Shown here: positions 2,432-40,790 of the stretch, in pieces
Layout: every line of letters starts with the position of its first letter
How positions within the stretch are numbered: position 1 is the first letter of the stretch
DNA from: a phage
Sequence record: QB031380.1
Strand: one strand, 5' to 3'
DNA length: 44,130 nt
Translations under genes and position numbers: made by a program
The notes under the pieces: model-generated
Databases searched by the model: none
Told to the model about the DNA's origin: nothing
The model's input: the letters and a program-made list of their open reading frames with translations, nothing else

Positions 2432-3211
2432 ATGGCTAAAGTCAACCTGAAAAATGTGCGCGTATGTTTCCTTAAAATTTGGGAACGCGATACCCCTAAA
2501 CAGGATGGTCAAAAACCGGCATACCGTGCCGTGATTCTTCTGGATAAAGAAGATCCGCAGGTGGACAAAGTGGAAGCGGCAGCGCGCGCAGTGCTCACCG
2601 ACAAGCTGAAATCCGAGAAGAATGCCGATAAGTGGATGGACCGCCACTACGCCCAGGATTCTAAGGAATGCGCTGTTCGTGACGGTGACGAGCGCGACGA
2701 AGTAACCGAAGAATTTGAAGGCATGTTGTACATCAACGCCAAATCGTTCAAGCAGCCAAACATTCAAACGTCACTCGGCGAGAAGCAGACGGAACAAGGT
2801 CTGACCGTAGAAGGCGACGAGATCGAAGGCCAGGAGATCTACTCCGGTTGTTATTGCAACGTGTCCCTGGATATTTGGGCGTGGAACAATACCAACGGTA
2901 AAGGCCTCGGTGCGGGCTTACTGGGTCTTCGCTTCCGTGATGATGGTGAATCCTTCGGTGGTGGCGGTTCTTCCTGCTCCGACGAAGACCTGGACAACGA
3001 TGACGAAGATGAAAGCCCGCGCAAGTCCAAAAAGTCAAAACGTCGTGATGACGATGACGAAGACGACAAGCCGCGCAAGTCCAAAAAGTCCAAGCGCCGC
3101 GATGACGACGATGATGACGAAGACGAGAAACCTCGTAAACGTCGTAAGCCACGCGATGACGAAGATGAGGACGACGAAGACGAAGCGCCACGTAAACGTC
3201 GCCGCCGTTAA
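2432..3211 (+). CDS. DUF2815-like ssDNA-binding protein with repetitive acidic/basic C-terminal tail
   Basis: N-terminus MAKVNLKNVRV; position between DUF2800-like gene and PolA; track ORF starts at GTG 2411, ATG 2432 has a GAGGA RBS. Confidence 0.6.
   Translation: MAKVNLKNVRVCFLKIWERDTPKQDGQKPAYRAVILLDKEDPQVDKVEAAARAVLTDKLKSEKNADKWMDRHYAQDSKECAVRDGDERDEVTEEFEGMLYINAKSFKQPNIQTSLGEKQTEQGLTVEGDEIEGQEIYSGCYCNVSLDIWAWNNTNGKGLGAGLLGLRFRDDGESFGGGGSSCSDEDLDNDDEDESPRKSKKSKRRDDDDEDDKPRKSKKSKRRDDDDDDEDEKPRKRRKPRDDEDEDDEDEAPRKRRRR
2990..3205 (+). repeat. Tandem ~60 bp coding repeats (DDDDEDD-KPRKSKKSKRR units)
   Basis: Three to four near-identical nucleotide units encoding alternating acidic and basic blocks. 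Confidence 0.7.
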
Positions 3212-3440: not shown

Positions 3441-5728
3441 AAGACTTCGAACGCCTGTTTCTCGACACCGAGACATTTAGCGGGGTAGACCTGAAGAAAG
3501 TTGGTGCGTACGCCTACGCGGAACACCCAACTACCGAGATCATGATTTGCACATACGCCATCGACGAAGGCCGCGTGCAAACGTGGGATTGCACCGAGTC
3601 CCCCACAATGCCGCGTGAACTGCGCAAGGCGCTCCGCCGGGTATCCCGCAAGAAAGCAAAAATAGTGATGGCTAACGGCCTCCTGTTTGACCGCCTGGTT
3701 ATTCGCGAGAAGTGGGGCATTGACCTGCCAGTGTGCCAGATCGAAGATACCATGATTATGGCCTTTCGACACGCGTTGCCGGGTAGTCTCGATATGCAGT
3801 GCCAGGTGCTGGGCGTTGACGCAGATCACGCGAAGGATAAGGCTGGCAAGGCGCTGATTAAACGATTCTGTAAGCCTACCCCTAAGACCTACAAAATCCG
3901 CCGCTACACCCGCGAGACTCACCCTGAAGAATGGGCTAAATTCCTGCGCTATGCCGCGCTGGATATCATCGCGATGCGGGAAGTCTATTGGCGCATACCA
4001 GACTGGGGTAATACGCAGAAGGAAGACGAAATCCTGCTTATTGACCAGTTGATTAACGACCGCGGCTTCTATGTGGACGTTGACCTGGCGCGCGCTGCGA
4101 TCAAGGCGGTACAGGCGCATAAAGAAGAGTTGAAGGAAGAAGCCTGGGAGCGCTTCGGCGGTAAGCTGACGGGCAATGACTTCCTGCCAGCGCTGCGCGA
4201 CCTCGCTCCTGCGTTCACAATCCACAACGCGCAGAAATCCACGCTTAACGACCTGCTGGAAGATCCAGACTTCCCCGACGAAGGCAAAGTGCTTATCGAG
4301 ATGCGCCTCGGTGCGTCATCCACGGCGTCGACTAAGTACAATCCGCTCGTTAATGGCCTATCTGCCGATGGTCGCCGTCGTGGGTGTCTTCAGTATGGAG
4401 GGGCAAAGCGCACACTGCGTTGGGCCGGTAAAGGATTCCAGCCTCAAAACCTGGCACGCGGCGAGTATAGCGACGACCACGAAGGGAAGATTAAACGCCG
4501 TGAAGGCGAGAGCGATATATCCTTTTGGGTGCGGTCGCACATGCTCACCAACGGCATCAACTCCCTGTTACGCGGGACAGCGCACTGGGCATATGACATA
4601 TCGAAGCTAACGGCCTCGACCGTTCGCGGGTGCATTATTCCGGCGAAGGGCAAGAAGTTTGTCGTAGCGGACTACTCCAACGTGGAAGGGCGCGGCCTCG
4701 CCTGGATCGCTGGCGAGAAAACCGCGCTAATGGTATTTAGGGCCGGTCGCGATATTTATTGTGAGACTGCCGGTAAAATGTTCGGCCTCGACCCGGAATA
4801 CATTAAAGCCAACCGCAAAGACTTGCGCCAGATTGGTAAGGCGTGCGAATTGGGGTTGGGCTATGGAGGTGGCGTTGCCGCGTTCTTGCAGTTCGCTAAA
4901 AACCTGGGCCTCGACCTTTACGCGATGGCGGACGTCATGAAGGGCACATTCCCCGATCACATTTGGGCCGCAGCGAAACGTGGATATGAATACGCCCGCA
5001 TTAACGAAGCTAAGCGCCCGCCGAAGCCTGGCAAGAAAGACGAGCGCCCAACTTATATACTGCCGAAAAACGTATGGCTGACGTGTGATGCGATCAAACG
5101 TATGTGGCGTGAGTCGCACCCGAAGACGGTAGCATTTTGGGCCGAACTGGAAGACGCGGTGCTCTGCGCGATCCGCAATCCGGGCAAAGCGTACTGGGCT
5201 GGCGCGAACGTTCGCCCGGATGGTAAGAAAGCGCTCAAGATAGTCCGCACGAAGGCGAAGCATGACCCAACCTTCGACGAGGAGCGCGACGATCCGAACG
5301 CCGCGGGGTGGTGGTTGAAAATTGAGTTACCGTCGGGGCGCATCATGAGCTACCCCGGCATCGCGCTGTCTGTCACGACCGAGATCGACGAAGACACCGG
5401 CAAGAAGCGCACCAGCACCCGCATTAAATATCAGGGTGAGAATCCGACGACGCGCCAGTGGGGATTCCAGTACACCTACGGCGGCAAACTGACGGAAAAC
5501 ATCGTGCAGGCTCTGTGCCGCGATATCCTCGCATGGTCCATGCCAGGCGTTGAAGCTGCAGGGTATGAGATCGTACTGTCCGTACACGATGAACTGATAA
5601 CCGAAGTGCCGGATACCGACGACTACACAACCGAGGAGTTGTGCGCGCTGATGTGCGACCTGCCGGTTTGGGCTAAAGGCTTCCCGCTTGCCGCGGAAGG
5701 CGACATTATGTACAGGTACAGGAAATAA
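3437..5728 (+). CDS. DNA polymerase, family A, with N-terminal 3'-5' exonuclease domain
   Basis: 763 aa; N-terminal FLDTETF exonuclease motif; C-terminal VLSVHDELITEV (PolA motif C). Confidence 0.9.
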   Translation: MKDFERLFLDTETFSGVDLKKVGAYAYAEHPTTEIMICTYAIDEGRVQTWDCTESPTMPRELRKALRRVSRKKAKIVMANGLLFDRLVIREKWGIDLPVCQIEDTMIMAFRHALPGSLDMQCQVLGVDADHAKDKAGKALIKRFCKPTPKTYKIRRYTRETHPEEWAKFLRYAALDIIAMREVYWRIPDWGNTQKEDEILLIDQLINDRGFYVDVDLARAAIKAVQAHKEELKEEAWERFGGKLTGNDFLPALRDLAPAFTIHNAQKSTLNDLLEDPDFPDEGKVLIEMRLGASSTASTKYNPLVNGLSADGRRRGCLQYGGAKRTLRWAGKGFQPQNLARGEYSDDHEGKIKRREGESDISFWVRSHMLTNGINSLLRGTAHWAYDISKLTASTVRGCIIPAKGKKFVVADYSNVEGRGLAWIAGEKTALMVFRAGRDIYCETAGKMFGLDPEYIKANRKDLRQIGKACELGLGYGGGVAAFLQFAKNLGLDLYAMADVMKGTFPDHIWAAAKRGYEYARINEAKRPPKPGKKDERPTYILPKNVWLTCDAIKRMWRESHPKTVAFWAELEDAVLCAIRNPGKAYWAGANVRPDGKKALKIVRTKAKHDPTFDEERDDPNAAGWWLKIELPSGRIMSYPGIALSVTTEIDEDTGKKRTSTRIKYQGENPTTRQWGFQYTYGGKLTENIVQALCRDILAWSMPGVEAAGYEIVLSVHDELITEVPDTDDYTTEELCALMCDLPVWAKGFPLAAEGDIMYRYRK

Positions 5729-6263: not shown

Positions 6264-6482
6264 ATGAAAGAACATTACCGACTCACCAAGCTGGGCGAAT
6301 GCAAACCAGGCGATCGCGTATGGTTTATCGCGGGCATGAATTACCCGCTGCCGTTAACGGTGTGCTGGCAAAAATTTAAGAGCTTCCGGGCGACCGGCGT
6401 GCACATCGGACACGCCACCAACTACGACGCCACAAAAAGGAACTGGAACAGTGAAACCGAAGTCTGGAAAAAGGCGGAATGA
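6264..6482 (+). CDS. hypothetical protein
   Basis: ORF with GGGAGA RBS about 7 nt upstream of ATG 6264. Confidence 0.4.
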   Translation: MKEHYRLTKLGECKPGDRVWFIAGMNYPLPLTVCWQKFKSFRATGVHIGHATNYDATKRNWNSETEVWKKAE

Positions 6483-7911
6483 AGATATGGCACGATTCCG
6501 ACGTCGCGAATATCAGAAGTTGATAACCGCGTTCATCCTCAAGCATAAGCGATGCAATATATGGGCAACAATGGGGTCGGGTAAAACCGGCGCGACCATG
6601 TGGGCGCTGAATAAAATGTTCCAGACCGGCATCCTGTCCCACCAGGATGACCGCGTGCTGGTGCTGGCCCCGCTGCGCGTTGCGTCCGGTACATGGCCCC
6701 CGGAGCAGGAAAAATGGCGCTTCCCCGCCTTGCTGGTAGTAGACGGCACCGGACCCGAGAAGGACCGCATCGCTGCGCTTGAGAGCGGCGCTAACGTGGT
6801 TTGTGTTAACTATGATGTGGTTGAGTGGCTCGTCGAGTATTGCGGCGACGAGTGGCCCTTTACGGTCGTTGTTGCCGATGAATCCACTAAGCTGAAAGGC
6901 TATAGAAGCAAGCAGGGGAGTAAGCGCGCCCGTGCGCTGGCGGCGATCGCACATAAGCACGTCAAGCGCTGGATTAACCTGACCGGCACACCCGCACCAA
7001 ACGGGCTGAAAGACCTATGGGGTCAGACGTGGTTTGTCGACGGGGGCGAACGCCTCGGCAGTAGCTATAAGGCATTCACGGATCGCTGGTTTATTAGCAA
7101 GCCTGTTAAGCCTGGCAGCTTCACTATGCAGCACGCCCCGCTTAAGAACTCCGAGAAAGAAATACAACAACGCCTGTCCGACGTGTCGCTCACAGTTGAT
7201 GCGGCTGAATACTTCGGATGTGACAAGCCAATCTATACGCCGGTTGTTGTGGACCTGCCGAAGAAAGCCCGCAAGATTTATGACCAGTTCGAAGCGGAGC
7301 TATTTGCCGAACTGGAAAGCGGAACTGTGGAGGCGGCGAACGCTGCGTCGAAGACTATTAAGTGCCTTCAGCTTGCTTCCGGGGCCGTGTATAAAGTCGA
7401 CGAAGACGGAGAGCGCACCGACGAATGGGTGAAAATTCACGACGCTAAACTGGACGCGCTGGAAAGTATCGTGGAGGAGTTGAACGGCGCACCGTTGCTC
7501 GTCGCGTACCAGTACAAGCATGACCTGGCGCGTCTTAAGAAGAAATTCCCGCACGGCGTCGCGATGGGTAAGGGAAAGCAAGGCAATAAGGATATGGAAG
7601 CGTGGAACAGGGGTGAGATCCCCATCATGTTCGCACACCCGGCATCGGCGGGTCACGGCCTTAACTTGCAGGATGGCGGACACCACCTTGCCATCTTCTC
7701 AGACACCTGGAACTATGAGCACTTTGCGCAGATCGTGGAGCGTATCGGGCCAGTTCGCCAGATGCAAGCCGGACACCCTCGCCCGGTATTCGTCTACATT
7801 ATCCAGGCGCGCGGCACACTTGATGAACTGGTCGCAGAGCGCCGCGACAGTAAGCGAGATATTCAGGACGATTTAATGGAATACATGAAAGCTAAAAAGG
7901 CGCGCAAATGA
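6451..7911 (+). CDS. SNF2/DEAD-like superfamily 2 helicase
   Basis: Walker A MGSGKTG, DExx-like VVVADESTKL; start may be the internal ATG at 6487. Confidence 0.8.
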   Translation: MKPKSGKRRNEDMARFRRREYQKLITAFILKHKRCNIWATMGSGKTGATMWALNKMFQTGILSHQDDRVLVLAPLRVASGTWPPEQEKWRFPALLVVDGTGPEKDRIAALESGANVVCVNYDVVEWLVEYCGDEWPFTVVVADESTKLKGYRSKQGSKRARALAAIAHKHVKRWINLTGTPAPNGLKDLWGQTWFVDGGERLGSSYKAFTDRWFISKPVKPGSFTMQHAPLKNSEKEIQQRLSDVSLTVDAAEYFGCDKPIYTPVVVDLPKKARKIYDQFEAELFAELESGTVEAANAASKTIKCLQLASGAVYKVDEDGERTDEWVKIHDAKLDALESIVEELNGAPLLVAYQYKHDLARLKKKFPHGVAMGKGKQGNKDMEAWNRGEIPIMFAHPASAGHGLNLQDGGHHLAIFSDTWNYEHFAQIVERIGPVRQMQAGHPRPVFVYIIQARGTLDELVAERRDSKRDIQDDLMEYMKAKKARK

Positions 7912-8603
7912 TTATCTGGTCATTATTTGACGGCAGCGGCTTGATGATTGAGCGTGCTGCCGAGATGGGGCATAAGTGTTATTGCTTCAACTACTCCGAA
8001 GCCGATCACGGGTCTTACCTGGACTACCGGATCTATGGTCGCGGCATTCGATATCGTAATGAGTTTATCGATCTGGACTTCGTGGACCGCGCGATGAATG
8101 GCGATTTCGGTACGCCGGATATCATTTATGCATTCCCGCCGTGTACGGATCTGGCGGTTAGCTGTGCGCCAGCGTTCCCGCGCAAACGCGCCCGCGACCC
8201 GGCCTTCCAGCTTAAGGCGGTGCGCACCGCGAAGATCGCTGCTTACCTGGGTGATTTCTTCGAAGTGCCGTATATGATTGAGAATCCGCGCAGCGTGCTA
8301 TCAACTCAATGGCGTAAGCCGGACCACTCGTTTGACCCGTGGGAGTATGGCGGATATCTGCCGGAGGATGACGTACACCCGCTCTTCCCGGAATACATCA
8401 ACGCCCGCGATTCATATCCGAAGCTGACCTGCTTATGGACCGGCAACGGCTTCCGTATGCCAGAGAAGAAACCTGTTTTCGTTGAAAAAGGGTACTCGAA
8501 GCAGTATAGTCGCCTCGGAGGCAAATCTGCCCGCACCAAATTAATCAGGTCGCTCACCCCGCGCGGCTTCGCGATAGCGGTTAACGAGGAAAATTTAAAA
8601 TGA
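7908..8603 (+). CDS. DNA (cytosine-5)-methyltransferase-like protein (compact)
   Basis: Motifs resembling C5-MTase I (LFDGSG), IV (FPPC), VI (IENP) and X-like (GFAIAVNE); only 231 aa. Confidence 0.45.
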   Translation: MIIWSLFDGSGLMIERAAEMGHKCYCFNYSEADHGSYLDYRIYGRGIRYRNEFIDLDFVDRAMNGDFGTPDIIYAFPPCTDLAVSCAPAFPRKRARDPAFQLKAVRTAKIAAYLGDFFEVPYMIENPRSVLSTQWRKPDHSFDPWEYGGYLPEDDVHPLFPEYINARDSYPKLTCLWTGNGFRMPEKKPVFVEKGYSKQYSRLGGKSARTKLIRSLTPRGFAIAVNEENLK

Positions 8604-8923
8604 ATACTGCATTCGACGCCATCGACTTTTCAGTGGCAATGACCAATCAGCTTTTTTCCTACGACAGCAAGACCGGCGTCATCCGTCTGAAGTCCACCGG
8701 CTGCAAGATTGGCAACCTTAACACTGCCGATGGTGGCACGCGCATCGAGTGCAACGGCAAGACGCTATCTGGCGCGCGCGTAGCGTGGATTATCGCAACA
8801 GGCAATACAATCCCTCCAGGCTTTGCCGTTGTGTGTCGCCAGCGCACACCAGGCCATTACGGCAACCGAATCAGCAATCTGTATTTGGTAGACGTTGCAC
8901 GCGACCCTAACTTTTATGCGTAA
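8600..8923 (+). CDS. hypothetical protein (weak HNH-like features)
   Basis: 107 aa ORF overlapping the upstream stop; no clear catalytic motif. Confidence 0.35.
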   Translation: MNTAFDAIDFSVAMTNQLFSYDSKTGVIRLKSTGCKIGNLNTADGGTRIECNGKTLSGARVAWIIATGNTIPPGFAVVCRQRTPGHYGNRISNLYLVDVARDPNFYA

Positions 8924-8928
8924 ATTGG

Positions 8929-8957
8929 TTGCATAATCATATTGGTTGCATTATATT
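8929..8957 (+). promoter_or_regulatory. sigma70-like promoter TTGCAT-N17-TATATT embedded in two ATTGGTTGCAT copies
   Basis: Hexamers and spacing read directly; motif copies at about 8924-8934 and 8941-8951. Confidence 0.45.
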
Positions 8958-9004
8958 GAGGGTGTCCGGTTTGGACGCCCTTTTTAATACCCGGAGACAA
9001 CACG

Positions 9005-9469
9005 ATGAAAATTTTACAAGAAGAGAAAAATTACTGGGCCGCGCAATGCCTCGAAGCCCGCGATCAGGCCAAACGTGCGAACGCGTTGGCGTCTGCCAAC
9101 CAGTCGCTATATGAAGGGGAGAAGAAAGTGCGCCAGGAGTTAGAGGAGCGCTTCGAACTGCTTTTCGAATTGATGGGGATTATGCAGCGCACCGGATACA
9201 CAACCAGCGTTGCACTAAACCGCATCACTGCCGATGGTTTGCGTGAGCATTGCAAACGTGCGGAGGAGCACGTCCGTCCGAAGGGTCGCCAGTCTTCGAT
9301 CGCCCGGAAAGACCTTGTGCTCATGGCGTGGCGCAACCCTACAAACGGCAGCTTCTACCCGGACGCGCGCCCGCTTAGTGCTGTGGAGTCAAAGCGCGTG
9401 CAACGCATTCTCAAAACCGGCGATAAAATCGCCCTGTATGCGATAGACACCGACCATGCAGAAGAGTGA
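9005..9469 (+). CDS. hypothetical protein
   Basis: 154 aa ORF with ATG start, downstream of the promoter. Confidence 0.5.
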   Translation: MKILQEEKNYWAAQCLEARDQAKRANALASANQSLYEGEKKVRQELEERFELLFELMGIMQRTGYTTSVALNRITADGLREHCKRAEEHVRPKGRQSSIARKDLVLMAWRNPTNGSFYPDARPLSAVESKRVQRILKTGDKIALYAIDTDHAEE

Positions 9470-9941
9470 GCAAAAAGATAGCTGGCGCACGCCGCCAGCT
9501 TTATTTAAACCGCTGCGCCGTAAGTACCGATTCCGTTATGACATGGCTGCGAGCGATGCCAACCACCTTCTACCGCGTTACTTCACGGCAGAGCACAGCG
9601 CGCTTGAGGTGGACTGGTCAGAGTTGAAAGGGTGGAAGTGGTGCAACCCGCCGTATTCCGATCCGCTGCCGTGGGTCGAGTGCGCAGCGCACGGACGCCG
9701 GACCGTCATGCTACTGAATCAGGACACGTCGACGAAGTGGGCGAAGCTGGCCCGGAAGACTGCAAACCTGATAATTCTTCTGGACTGGCGGATACGATTC
9801 ACCCATGCTGTGACCGGTGAAGTCGGGCCGAGCAATAACAAGTGCCAGCAATTGATAATCTTTGACGAAGCGCCACCCACCGGCAGCGCACAAATTGAAA
9901 TAATGAGCGAAGGAGAACTACGTGAATATCTTAATCGTTGA
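9456..9941 (+). CDS. phage-type DNA N6-adenine methyltransferase (Dam-like)
   Basis: N-terminal DSWRTPP and catalytic NPPYS motif. Confidence 0.8.
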   Translation: MQKSEQKDSWRTPPALFKPLRRKYRFRYDMAASDANHLLPRYFTAEHSALEVDWSELKGWKWCNPPYSDPLPWVECAAHGRRTVMLLNQDTSTKWAKLARKTANLIILLDWRIRFTHAVTGEVGPSNNKCQQLIIFDEAPPTGSAQIEIMSEGELREYLNR

Positions 9942-10146
9942 TCGCAGTATGCGCGTCGTGGACGAAATTGTTAAACGCTACCAAATCAACCCGAGGGAGA
10001 ACAAAGTGCGTCGCGTGTCACGGCCGGAACACCTCCTGGGCATGGACCTTACTGGCTGGCTTGTAATGACTGCCCGCTGCCATCTTGTGTGTGACACGTG
10101 TTCCGCCCGTATTGTTCGTGCAAATTTGATTGAGGAATTGAAATGA
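9922..10146 (+). CDS. hypothetical protein
   Basis: 74 aa ORF coupled to neighbouring genes. Confidence 0.4.
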   Translation: MNILIVDRSMRVVDEIVKRYQINPRENKVRRVSRPEHLLGMDLTGWLVMTARCHLVCDTCSARIVRANLIEELK

Positions 10147-10613
10147 AACTACTTATTTGTGATCTGGATGGCGTTATTAATGGTTCAAGCGATGCGCGTG
10201 CCGACCTGGTGCCAGGGATAAAAACGAAATCCACCTTTTGGGCGAAGTGGCACAAAGCGCACGTCCGCGAAGACCTGAACATGGATATGCTGCCGCTGCT
10301 GCGCATGTATAAAGAGCAAGGCTTCGAGATCGCGTATCTGACCAACCGGCAGCGCGAATGCTGGGACACCACCGCCGAGCAATTGGAGGTCTTCCCGGTA
10401 GGCCGGTTGTTTATGCGCCACATGCTGGATGACACCCCGCCGCCAGAGTTTAAGGCGTGCGCCGTGTTCAAAATGGTCTGCTACGCGGACGTGTCGGAAC
10501 TGGTCATCATTGAAGATTGCGAGAAGAACATCGCGGCGATTCGTCGGGCGTGTGGTGATTTGGTCCCGAAAATTTACGCAATAAACGTTGCAAAATTCAC
10601 TTGCAACCAATAG
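10143..10613 (+). CDS. HAD-superfamily hydrolase-like protein
   Basis: N-terminal LICDLDGVI (HAD motif I DxDG), YLTNR (motif II), EDCEKN region. Confidence 0.5.
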   Translation: MKLLICDLDGVINGSSDARADLVPGIKTKSTFWAKWHKAHVREDLNMDMLPLLRMYKEQGFEIAYLTNRQRECWDTTAEQLEVFPVGRLFMRHMLDDTPPPEFKACAVFKMVCYADVSELVIIEDCEKNIAAIRRACGDLVPKIYAINVAKFTCNQ

Positions 10614-10631
10614 GTTGGTTGCACTATAGTA
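10602..10631 (+). promoter_or_regulatory. promoter-like TTGCAA-N18-TATAGT spanning palindrome TGCAACCAA-tagg-TTGGTTGCA
   Basis: Perfect inverted repeat of the 9-mer overlapping the hexamers. Confidence 0.4.
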
Positions 10632-29589: not shown

Positions 29590-29619
29590 TTGCACTGCGG
29601 GAATTGGTTGCGCTATATT
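29590..29619 (+). promoter_or_regulatory. sigma70-like promoter TTGCAC-N18-TATATT with GGTTGC elements
   Basis: Hexamers read directly; ATTGGTTGCGC in the spacer and GGTTGCAC just after the -10. Confidence 0.45.
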
Positions 29620-29648
29620 GGTTGCACACCAACAACGAGGACACAAAA

Positions 29649-37028: not shown

Positions 37029-37091
37029 CTTGATTACTCCTCTTATTGGTTGGTTGCAGTATGGCCCCTATGTTGGTTGCAAGTCAAGCAA

Positions 37092-40319: not shown

Positions 40320-40347
40320 CGTTCAGTCCTCATGTTGGTGTGCAACC

Positions 40348-40376
40348 AATCTAGCAGGGTGCTGGCTCGAATGCAA
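40348..40376 (-). promoter_or_regulatory. sigma70-like promoter TTGCAT-N17-TAGATT flanked by TTGGTTGCA elements
   Basis: Minus strand reads ATTGGTTGCAT...TAGATTGGTTGCAC. Confidence 0.45.
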
Positions 40377-40530
40377 CCAATATTAATCATGCGCATGAAA
40401 AAGTTGATCGCTATCTGCTGTGACTGCAAACTGCATTTTTCGCACCACGTTCTGCATCTCGCATTGGTTGCCTAGTTCAGTGGCGACCGCAATCCGCAAC
40501 ATGCTGCCGTGTATTTTGCAATCCCGGATT

Positions 40531-40740: not shown

Positions 40741-40790
40741 ACGGCAACCAATGCGACCGACTAAAAATACACAAAACGGCAACCAATGCG
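40741..40790. repeat. Direct repeat ACGGCAACCAATGCG x2 just downstream of the primase/helicase stop
   Basis: Two identical 15-mers about 34 bp apart. Confidence 0.6.

Follow-up and report, generated by a model that had tools for sequence, protein, structure and literature searches.

A probable orphan DNA-methyltransferase pair of Dhillonvirus coliphages, with a compact Dcm-like cytosine enzyme that carries a private substitution

Can a phage protein that bears the motifs of a cytosine-C5 DNA methyltransferase, but is too short to hold a normal target-recognition domain (TRD), methylate DNA on its own, and what would it do for a phage that encodes an adenine methyltransferase just downstream? 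This question is raised by positions 7908-9941 of sequence record QB031380.1, a stretch of phage DNA of 44,130 nucleotides which we analysed at full length and refer to as the window. An original prediction had described there a 231-amino-acid (aa) protein with C5-methyltransferase-like motifs, a 107-aa protein of unknown function and a canonical phage Dam. The coordinates it gave for the three open reading frames (ORFs) were exact (7908-8603, 8600-8923 and 9456-9941, encoding 231, 107 and 161 aa), and the motifs it quoted, LFDGSG (residues 6-11), FPPC (76-79) and IENP (124-127) in the first protein and NPPYS (64-68) in the third, are all present in the translations; a fourth gene within the span, at 9005-9469 (154 aa), was absent from it. 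All of these genes, like the other genes, protein motifs and the intergenic gap of the locus located below, lie on the plus strand. On the strength of fold, family membership, conservation and distribution, all established in the present analysis, we consider it highly probable that the span is the orphan pair of DNA methyltransferases that is standard for the genus Dhillonvirus and follows an SNF2-type helicase in the early replication module, with the 231-aa C5 enzyme and the 161-aa Dam working as proposed below.

The 231-aa protein has a motif I-like loop, L6-F-D-G-S-G11 (7923-7940), a motif IV, F76-P-P-C79 (8133-8144), whose Cys79 is the predicted catalytic nucleophile, and a motif VI, I124-E-N-P127 (8277-8288), which is an ENP variant of Glu-Asn-Val. 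It matches phrog_757 ('DNA methyltransferase') with an E-value of 8.8e-82, and PADLOC and PDB sequence searches returned nothing significant for it. A profile of its family gave a marginal PDB match to M.HaeIII (E 0.37), in correct register over motifs I-IV. Because sequence libraries are nearly blind to this protein, a comparison of folds was needed to place it. An AlphaFold2 model built from a 63-sequence alignment reached a mean predicted local distance difference test (pLDDT) score of 95.7 and a predicted template modelling (pTM) score of 0.92. Its fold matches share the class I Rossmann methyltransferase fold, with DNA C5-methyltransferases predominating, and the best 50 matches in a Foldseek search of the PDB are all DNMT3A, DNMT3B or DNMT3C. 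In the same alignment C79, E125, P127, Y170, K172, T174 and W177 are invariant, N126 is at least 90% conserved and L6 is nearly invariant. The LFDGSG loop falls in register with 'ISLFSGAGG' of M.HaeIII, the family consensus being a looser SLFDxSG. By these comparisons the protein is a genuine C5-cytosine methyltransferase, and the identification of two DNA methyltransferases of the predicted chemistries, one with a C5-cytosine fold and one a PF05869 Dam, is correct.

Alignment also places it among compact Dcm-like C5 enzymes that form a large family carried by phages. A word-indexed search found more than 2,875 clusters, nearly all of 225-250 aa, and an exhaustive search gave 704 representatives at 50% identity, mostly of 210-260 aa. 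By tblastn the family occurs in 1,509 phage records, among them phages of Escherichia, Klebsiella, Salmonella, Vibrio and other hosts, and its carriers include Drexlerviridae, rV5-like myoviruses and phiKO2. Other viral cytosine methylases of 199-250 aa are held in BFVD. Domain fusion was considered for the longer relatives (300-450 aa) and rejected, their extensions having no Pfam match and looking low-complexity. The enzyme is, as predicted, far shorter than textbook enzymes, with no room for a normal TRD, but the word 'unusually' does not stand, since such lengths are normal for this family.

The experimental anchor for the family is the Dcm of phage K42. Over its full length the 231-aa protein is 53% identical (BLASTP, E 4e-85) to the 236-aa Dcm of phage KarlJaspers (Bas06, QXV82308), whose genome is 95.4% identical to that of its strain K42. 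Four of four K42 escapers of retron Ec86 (Eco1) disrupt the 711-bp dcm gene, and K42 Dcm alone, expressed from pBAD, is sufficient to trigger the retron; by liquid chromatography coupled to mass spectrometry (LC-MS), 5-methylcytosine (5mC) on the retron's msDNA is raised by K42 Dcm and not by a C82A/E128A/K175A/K176A mutant, changing the CCTGG site in the msDNA stem abolishes defence, and Dcm expression was remarked to be toxic (bioRxiv 10.1101/2023.08.16.553469). Later papers treat the triggering of this retron by Dcm as established. Residues C82, E128 and K175 of K42 Dcm align with C79, E125 and K172 of the 231-aa protein, whereas K176 corresponds to a leucine. The KarlJaspers dcm, too, stands alone as an orphan gene, and it likewise lies in the early region of a coliphage that is a small siphovirus; the lineages differ, the window being a Dhillonvirus and KarlJaspers a Hanrivervirus (Drexlerviridae), and so do the neighbouring genes. 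Formation of 5mC and sufficiency of the enzyme alone are thus properties of K42 Dcm, which we would extend to its counterpart in the window.

Comparison with better-known enzymes suggests how so short a protein might work. M.HhaI, M.HaeIII and E. coli Dcm (PF00145) have the same Rossmann core, with motifs I (FxGxG-like), IV (PC) and VI (EN-) in the same order, and presumably share with it the 5mC product and a Dcm-like site; unlike these, the 231-aa protein is about 100 residues shorter, has a TRD of about 40 residues and falls outside PF00145. The catalytic domains of DNMT3A and DNMT3B (PDB 6u8p, 4u7t, 6f57) are only 12-16% identical to it, and it differs from them in being about 50 residues shorter and of phage origin; the DNMT3 dimer and tetramer interfaces are known on the DNMT3 side, the comparison with the 231-aa protein being one of fold only. 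In the model the strand equivalent to motif VIII (174-179) is separated from the C-terminal helix (219-229) by only about 40 residues, and the minimal TRDs of the DNMT3 enzymes, its nearest folds, are consistent with a stand-in of this size. By standard C5-methyltransferase chemistry, the N-terminal Rossmann loop (LFDGSG) would bind S-adenosylmethionine and the target cytosine would be flipped out; Cys79 (motif IV, PPC) would attack C6 while Glu125 (motif VI, ENP) engages N3/N4, and Lys172, in the Y170-x-K-x-T strand, would stand for the usual QxRxR of motif VIII. Residues ~180-218 would serve in place of a TRD, resembling the minimal TRD of DNMT3A/B. After the KarlJaspers/K42 homologue, the likely product is 5mC and the likely site CCWGG.

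The 161-aa protein (9456-9941) is less demanding to place. It matches PF05869 with 119.6 bits against a cut-off of 28.1 (E 1.5e-34, profile positions 5-146 of 169) and phrog_111 with E 4.5e-55, and by tblastn 1,747 phage records contain a relative. Its motif IV, N64-P-P-Y-S68 (9645-9659), is conserved with the Dam of Edwardsiella phage eiAU-183 ('WCNPPYSD'), to which the protein is 45% identical; identity is 36% to the 175-aa Dam of the Shiga-toxin (Stx) phage nin region, itself a PF05869 match at 217 bits, and 30% to T1 Dam. VT-2 and HP1 are also among the phages that carry Dam-like genes. Like the Dams of T1, the Stx-phage/VT-2 nin region and HP1, it is a phage-borne orphan of PF05869 with an NPPY motif and a length in the range of ~160-180 aa, though only 30-36% identical to the T1 and Stx-phage enzymes. 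The T1, VT-2 and HP1 Dams are GATC-specific. On these alignments the protein is a PF05869 phage Dam, for which 'canonical phage Dam' is a fair description, and it most probably makes N6-methyladenine (6mA) at GATC. Two types of known non-specific adenine methyltransferase were considered for it and rejected: Hia5, Hin1523 and Nma1821 fall in the alpha class of DPPY enzymes and are relatives of E. coli Dam, and the type of phiP27 NP_543076 and OS31_p25 is 352 aa long and sits at another locus.

The genomic setting shows that the pair belongs to a genus and not to one isolate. The window is a near-complete genome of a Dhillonvirus, that is, an HK578-like coliphage. A 2.7-kb query covering the locus matches 158 phage records, nearly all from Escherichia or Shigella phages of this genus of HK578-like siphoviruses, with Escherichia phage Henu5_1 as the best match (95.7% identity). 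The gene pair is already known: it is conserved in more than 150 sequenced Dhillonviruses and annotated in many. Several relatives' records list a helicase, a putative DNA cytosine methyltransferase C5, an HNH endonuclease, a hypothetical protein and a DNA N-6-adenine methyltransferase, and in the BASEL collection the labels are 'Dcm-like C5 cytosine methyltransferase' for the one gene and 'Dam-like N6-adenine methyltransferase' for the other; the pair has thus been described at the annotation level. In pairwise comparisons with other Dhillonviruses, the ratio of nonsynonymous to synonymous substitution rates (dN/dS) is 0.02-0.04 for the C5-methyltransferase gene, 0.02-0.05 for the 107-aa gene, 0.04-0.12 for dam and 0.13-0.29 for the 154-aa gene, and such low values indicate that all four genes are real and constrained by purifying selection.

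Upstream stands the SNF2/DEAD-type helicase (6451-7911; phrog_62, E 2.3e-157), the stop of which overlaps the methyltransferase start as ATGA; the methyltransferase stop overlaps the start of the 107-aa gene in the same way (8600-8603). Then follows an 81-bp intergenic gap (8924-9004), 3' of which the 154-aa gene, dam, a 74-aa ORF with a GTG start (9922-10146) and a gene for a HAD-family phosphatase or polynucleotide-kinase-like protein (10143-10613; phrog_415, E 1.9e-36) overlap successively. To judge from this layout, the span consists of parts of two translationally coupled gene strings, parted at the gap. Since helicase and phosphatase/kinase-like gene flank it, the pair can be assigned to a module of replication and nucleic-acid metabolism.

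What the two enzymes would do there can be approached through the sites that the genome keeps. GATC occurs 173 times and CCWGG 143 times, near expectation and thus not avoided, and several 6-bp palindromes are scarce genome-wide (AAGCTT, GGTACC and CCCGGG 0 each, GGATCC 1, GAATTC 2). This combination is in keeping with methylation of two host-like motifs by a phage that dodges other type II systems by site avoidance. CTAG, too, occurs only 17 times in the genome against about 50 expected. Both enzymes would act on replicating phage DNA, probably keeping host-like sites fully methylated, and the protection gained would be narrow, covering EcoRII-like and MboI/DpnII-like nucleases and MutH. Carrying the genes should also have a cost, because retron Eco1 is set off by phage Dcm, and other retrons respond to methylation by phage Dam. 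We found no published methylome or restriction-digest data for Dhillonviruses in the literature searched, and we infer both the site specificities and the biological role from the comparisons above.

Several points weigh against this interpretation of the pair. The 231-aa protein has no Pfam or NCBIfam match, PF00145 included, even at E ≤10, and only four of its 63 relatives weakly touch PF00145, the best at E 3e-4. Neither a canonical motif VIII (QxRxR) nor a canonical motif X (GN) can be recognised in it, their places being taken by the invariant Y170-x-K172-x-T174-x-x-W177 and by R214-S-x-x-P218-x-G220-F-A-x-A224-V. Motif VIII as QxRxR and motif X as GNxVP are definitions that come from M.HhaI-type enzymes. 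The 161-aa protein scores 85.7 bits with TIGR01712, below the equivalog cut-off of 97.05, and its GATC site is read from relatives just 30-36% identical. The site of K42 Dcm was taken as the E. coli Dcm motif, assumed and not mapped (bioRxiv 10.1101/2023.08.16.553469), and at 53% identity the specificity of the window's enzyme could differ from it. Little protection from restriction-modification (RM) systems is seen in the BASEL phenotypes of Dhillonvirus, which leaves the adaptive role unproven. Finally, the C5 enzyme of this very isolate may be impaired, weakened or inactive through a glycine-to-cysteine change at residue 86 (G86C).

How far do these doubts favour other explanations? The non-canonical motifs VIII and X could be those of an enzyme which, as the original prediction allowed, modifies a different substrate: one that transfers a non-methyl group such as carboxymethyl, or acts on transfer RNA, as Dnmt2 does, or on free nucleotides. 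We regard this as very improbable, as the K42 counterpart gave 5mC in DNA by LC-MS and the quadruple mutant, which includes the catalytic cysteine, did not, no CmoA-like synthase of carboxy-S-adenosylmethionine is encoded near the methyltransferase gene, and DNA C5-methyltransferases dominate the fold matches. The same prediction supposed that an enzyme without a TRD of its own might require the adjacent 107-aa protein, in effect as a DNA-recognition subunit. The ATGA overlap does suggest translational coupling, and the 107-aa protein, which goes back to the DNA-binding scaffold of a homing endonuclease, experiences strong purifying selection and has a homologue that adjoins a C5-methyltransferase in eiAU-183 also (NC_023555; 852-4382, in the order helicase, 151-aa homologue, 330-aa PF00145 C5-methyltransferase, PF05869 Dam). 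That 330-aa enzyme, however, is full-length and unrelated in sequence to the compact one, and K42 Dcm needed no partner for 5mC formation or for triggering the retron. Phage records with the 107-aa protein number 162 and, apart from four Edwardsiella phages, belong to Dhillonvirus; a database of 5.8 billion proteins has just five clusters of it, and the methyltransferase family is about ten times more widespread; no homologue of it adjoins the KarlJaspers dcm, whose flanking genes are unrelated, and the Dhillonvirus Teewinot retains the 107-aa gene and dam despite deletion of the methyltransferase. A subunit role thus has hardly any likelihood, and the 107-aa and 154-aa genes would be independent neighbours. 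Self-methylation at two base types had also been expected to give broad protection from restriction, which would need relaxed or very short sites. Low specificity could in principle follow from so small a TRD, and non-specific phage adenine methyltransferases exist, but the known ones belong to other families (Hia5 to the alpha-class DPPY enzymes, phiP27 NP_543076 with its 352 aa to another type), and avoiding 6-bp palindromes would be needless if methylation were broad. In the BASEL work, moreover, RM-resistant Queuovirinae are contrasted with Drexlerviridae and with Dhillonvirus, the latter described as far less resistant, and methyltransferase genes show no simple link to restriction resistance in the methyltransferase-rich Drexlerviridae. 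Broad joint protection is therefore improbable.

The substitution at residue 86 has to be taken more seriously than any of these. Codon 86 (8163-8165) reads TGT, cysteine, at seven residues past the catalytic cysteine, in the catalytic-loop segment, where 201 of 201 homologues with a P-C motif have glycine, as M.HaeIII has at the same distance (PPCQSWSEGG). Over 212 full-length homologues, 99.1% of which have Gly86, 26 columns are at least 90% conserved, and the window keeps 25 of them, deviating at residue 86 only. It is also the sole amino-acid difference from the Henu5_1 protein, despite a synonymous divergence (dS) of 0.18. None of 749 phage records contains an exact match to the 38 aa around residue 86, and the exact 231-aa sequence was not found in a collection of 15 billion sequences. 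We infer from this pattern a tentative, by no means negligible, chance that the isolate's C5 enzyme is dead or strongly attenuated, in which case 6mA would be made with little or no 5mC, and the phage might escape a defence that senses Dcm, for instance retron Eco1/Ec86, or be relieved of Dcm toxicity; the disruption of dcm in every K42 escaper of Ec86 and the noted toxicity of Dcm expression fit such an outcome, as do natural losses of the enzyme in the genus. On the other hand, a single missense change may be tolerable, the ORF is otherwise intact, and one G-to-T change could be a sequencing or assembly error. DNMT1 and DNMT3A have asparagine and not glycine at this position, which we count against inactivation. 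An inactivating or attenuating mutation, a tolerated variant and a sequencing error are all possible, and computation does not distinguish them. A related reading goes further: site recognition by the compact, essentially TRD-less family would be non-classical, perhaps by a dimer like that of DNMT3 or through a shorter, relaxed motif other than CCWGG, and G86C would be adaptive, its loss or alteration of function having been favoured by a host defence of the Eco1/Ec86 type that senses Dcm. We think this combination unlikely; if true, the genome would be a natural 'escaper' found in the wild.

Two relatives have lost the C5 enzyme in other ways. In Teewinot (NC_073053) it is cut to a 61-aa in-frame remnant (2986-3171). 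In mckay (MN850629; 1810-2445) identity stays at 99% as far as residue 195, after which a frameshift removes the conserved C-terminal R-S-x-x-P-x-G block. Such occasional losses are consistent with a cost imposed by retrons, and G86C may perhaps belong with them.

Turning to the neighbours of the standard orphan pair, the 107-aa protein (8600-8923) matches phrog_99, 'HNH endonuclease', over residues 9-99 (E 4.2e-16), and scores 12.6 bits (E 0.11) with Pfam HNH_3, below the cut-off of 24.8. Like NUMOD4+HNH_3 homing endonucleases of the I-HmuI type, it aligns over the beta-hairpin and the HNH_3 scaffold; unlike them, it lacks the 'HR' histidine, the catalytic histidine, the terminal asparagine and the C-terminal DNA-binding domain. 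Against the NUMOD4+HNH_3 enzyme gp36 of Stx phage P27, AHR has become GAR, VNH has become CRQ and SEN has become ARD, so that of the beta-beta-alpha-Me site of HNH_3 enzymes, with its catalytic His and its Asn/His metal ligands, only N89-R..N93-L (the N-R-x-x-N-L element) is kept. The eiAU homologue has the same histidine-to-cysteine replacement and weakly matches the NUMOD-like domain of I-HmuI. An AlphaFold2 model from a six-sequence alignment was unusable (pLDDT 48.6), and we relied on the sequence alignment. This 'degenerate HNH_3/NUMOD-like' protein is hence not entirely of unknown function, as first supposed; it is probably a degenerate homing-endonuclease descendant, no longer a nuclease and kept for another function, and its public 'HNH endonuclease' label looks unsupported. 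Seen from eiAU-183, the alignments indicate that the slot is conserved between the two genomes while the C5-methyltransferase cassette has been swapped.

The 154-aa protein (9005-9469) matches phrog_10530 (E 9.5e-93), and no ligase, nucleotidyltransferase or other domain was found for it in Pfam, NCBIfam, PADLOC or PDB sequences; its function is left unassigned. Several RefSeq relatives are labelled 'DNA ligase', solely via phrog_10530, a label which likewise looks unsupported on these searches. In several relatives an extra 243-bp ORF (80 aa, hypothetical) lies between the 107-aa and 154-aa genes (Teewinot 3556-3798, mckay 2906-3148, and 2006-2248 and 2894-3136 in two further relatives), and it is present in neither the window nor Henu5_1. 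The gap at 8924-9004 contains two copies of ATTGGTTGCA, at 8924 and 8941, which overlap a promoter-like TTGCAT-17-TATATT. With at most one mismatch this 10-mer has 18 occurrences across the window where 2.9 would be expected, and none of 100 shuffles reached 18. Its copies often form close pairs, at 8924-8950, 10602-10623, 29603-29626, 37049-37081, 40341-40381 and 40743-40787, with singles elsewhere, and it probably serves the phage's transcription programme as an operator or promoter element.

The 74-aa ORF downstream of dam (9922-10146), between it and the phosphatase/kinase-like gene, matches in position and length Ksap1 of SECphi18, another Dhillonvirus; Ksap1 is a small protein sensed by the Avs2 defence of K. 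pneumoniae (PMC11564622). The ORF is confined to Dhillonvirus (158 records) and unusually variable (56-96% identity), the window's copy being 90.5% identical to that of KarlBarth/Bas17, a phage against which KpAvs2 defends and which was chosen for the Ksap1 tests (PMC11564622). A few public records that match the locus also drew attention. 'Acinetobacter phage NJ01' and 'Sodalis phage SO-1' are near-identical Dhillonvirus genomes, with ~91-92% identity across the locus, another matching record carries a Campylobacter phage name, and the P-GXEC-L2P5 record, at 88.6 kb, is about twice the usual genome length. These three host labels and the P-GXEC-L2P5 assembly may need checking.

Overall, little about the pair is new, since for a family member 53% identical to the C5 enzyme both 5mC formation as a Dcm and triggering of retron Eco1 have already been described, and part of what our analysis offers is a caution that the public 'HNH endonuclease' and 'DNA ligase' labels on the two intervening genes look unsupported. 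What value remains lies in the way in which the compact family achieves specificity and in the G86C variant private to this isolate. With no Pfam model, solved structure or rigorously mapped site to its name, this family is a reasonable target for work on minimal C5-methyltransferases. For the phages that carry them, both methyltransferases are potential liabilities, since phage Dcm and Dam can trigger retrons.

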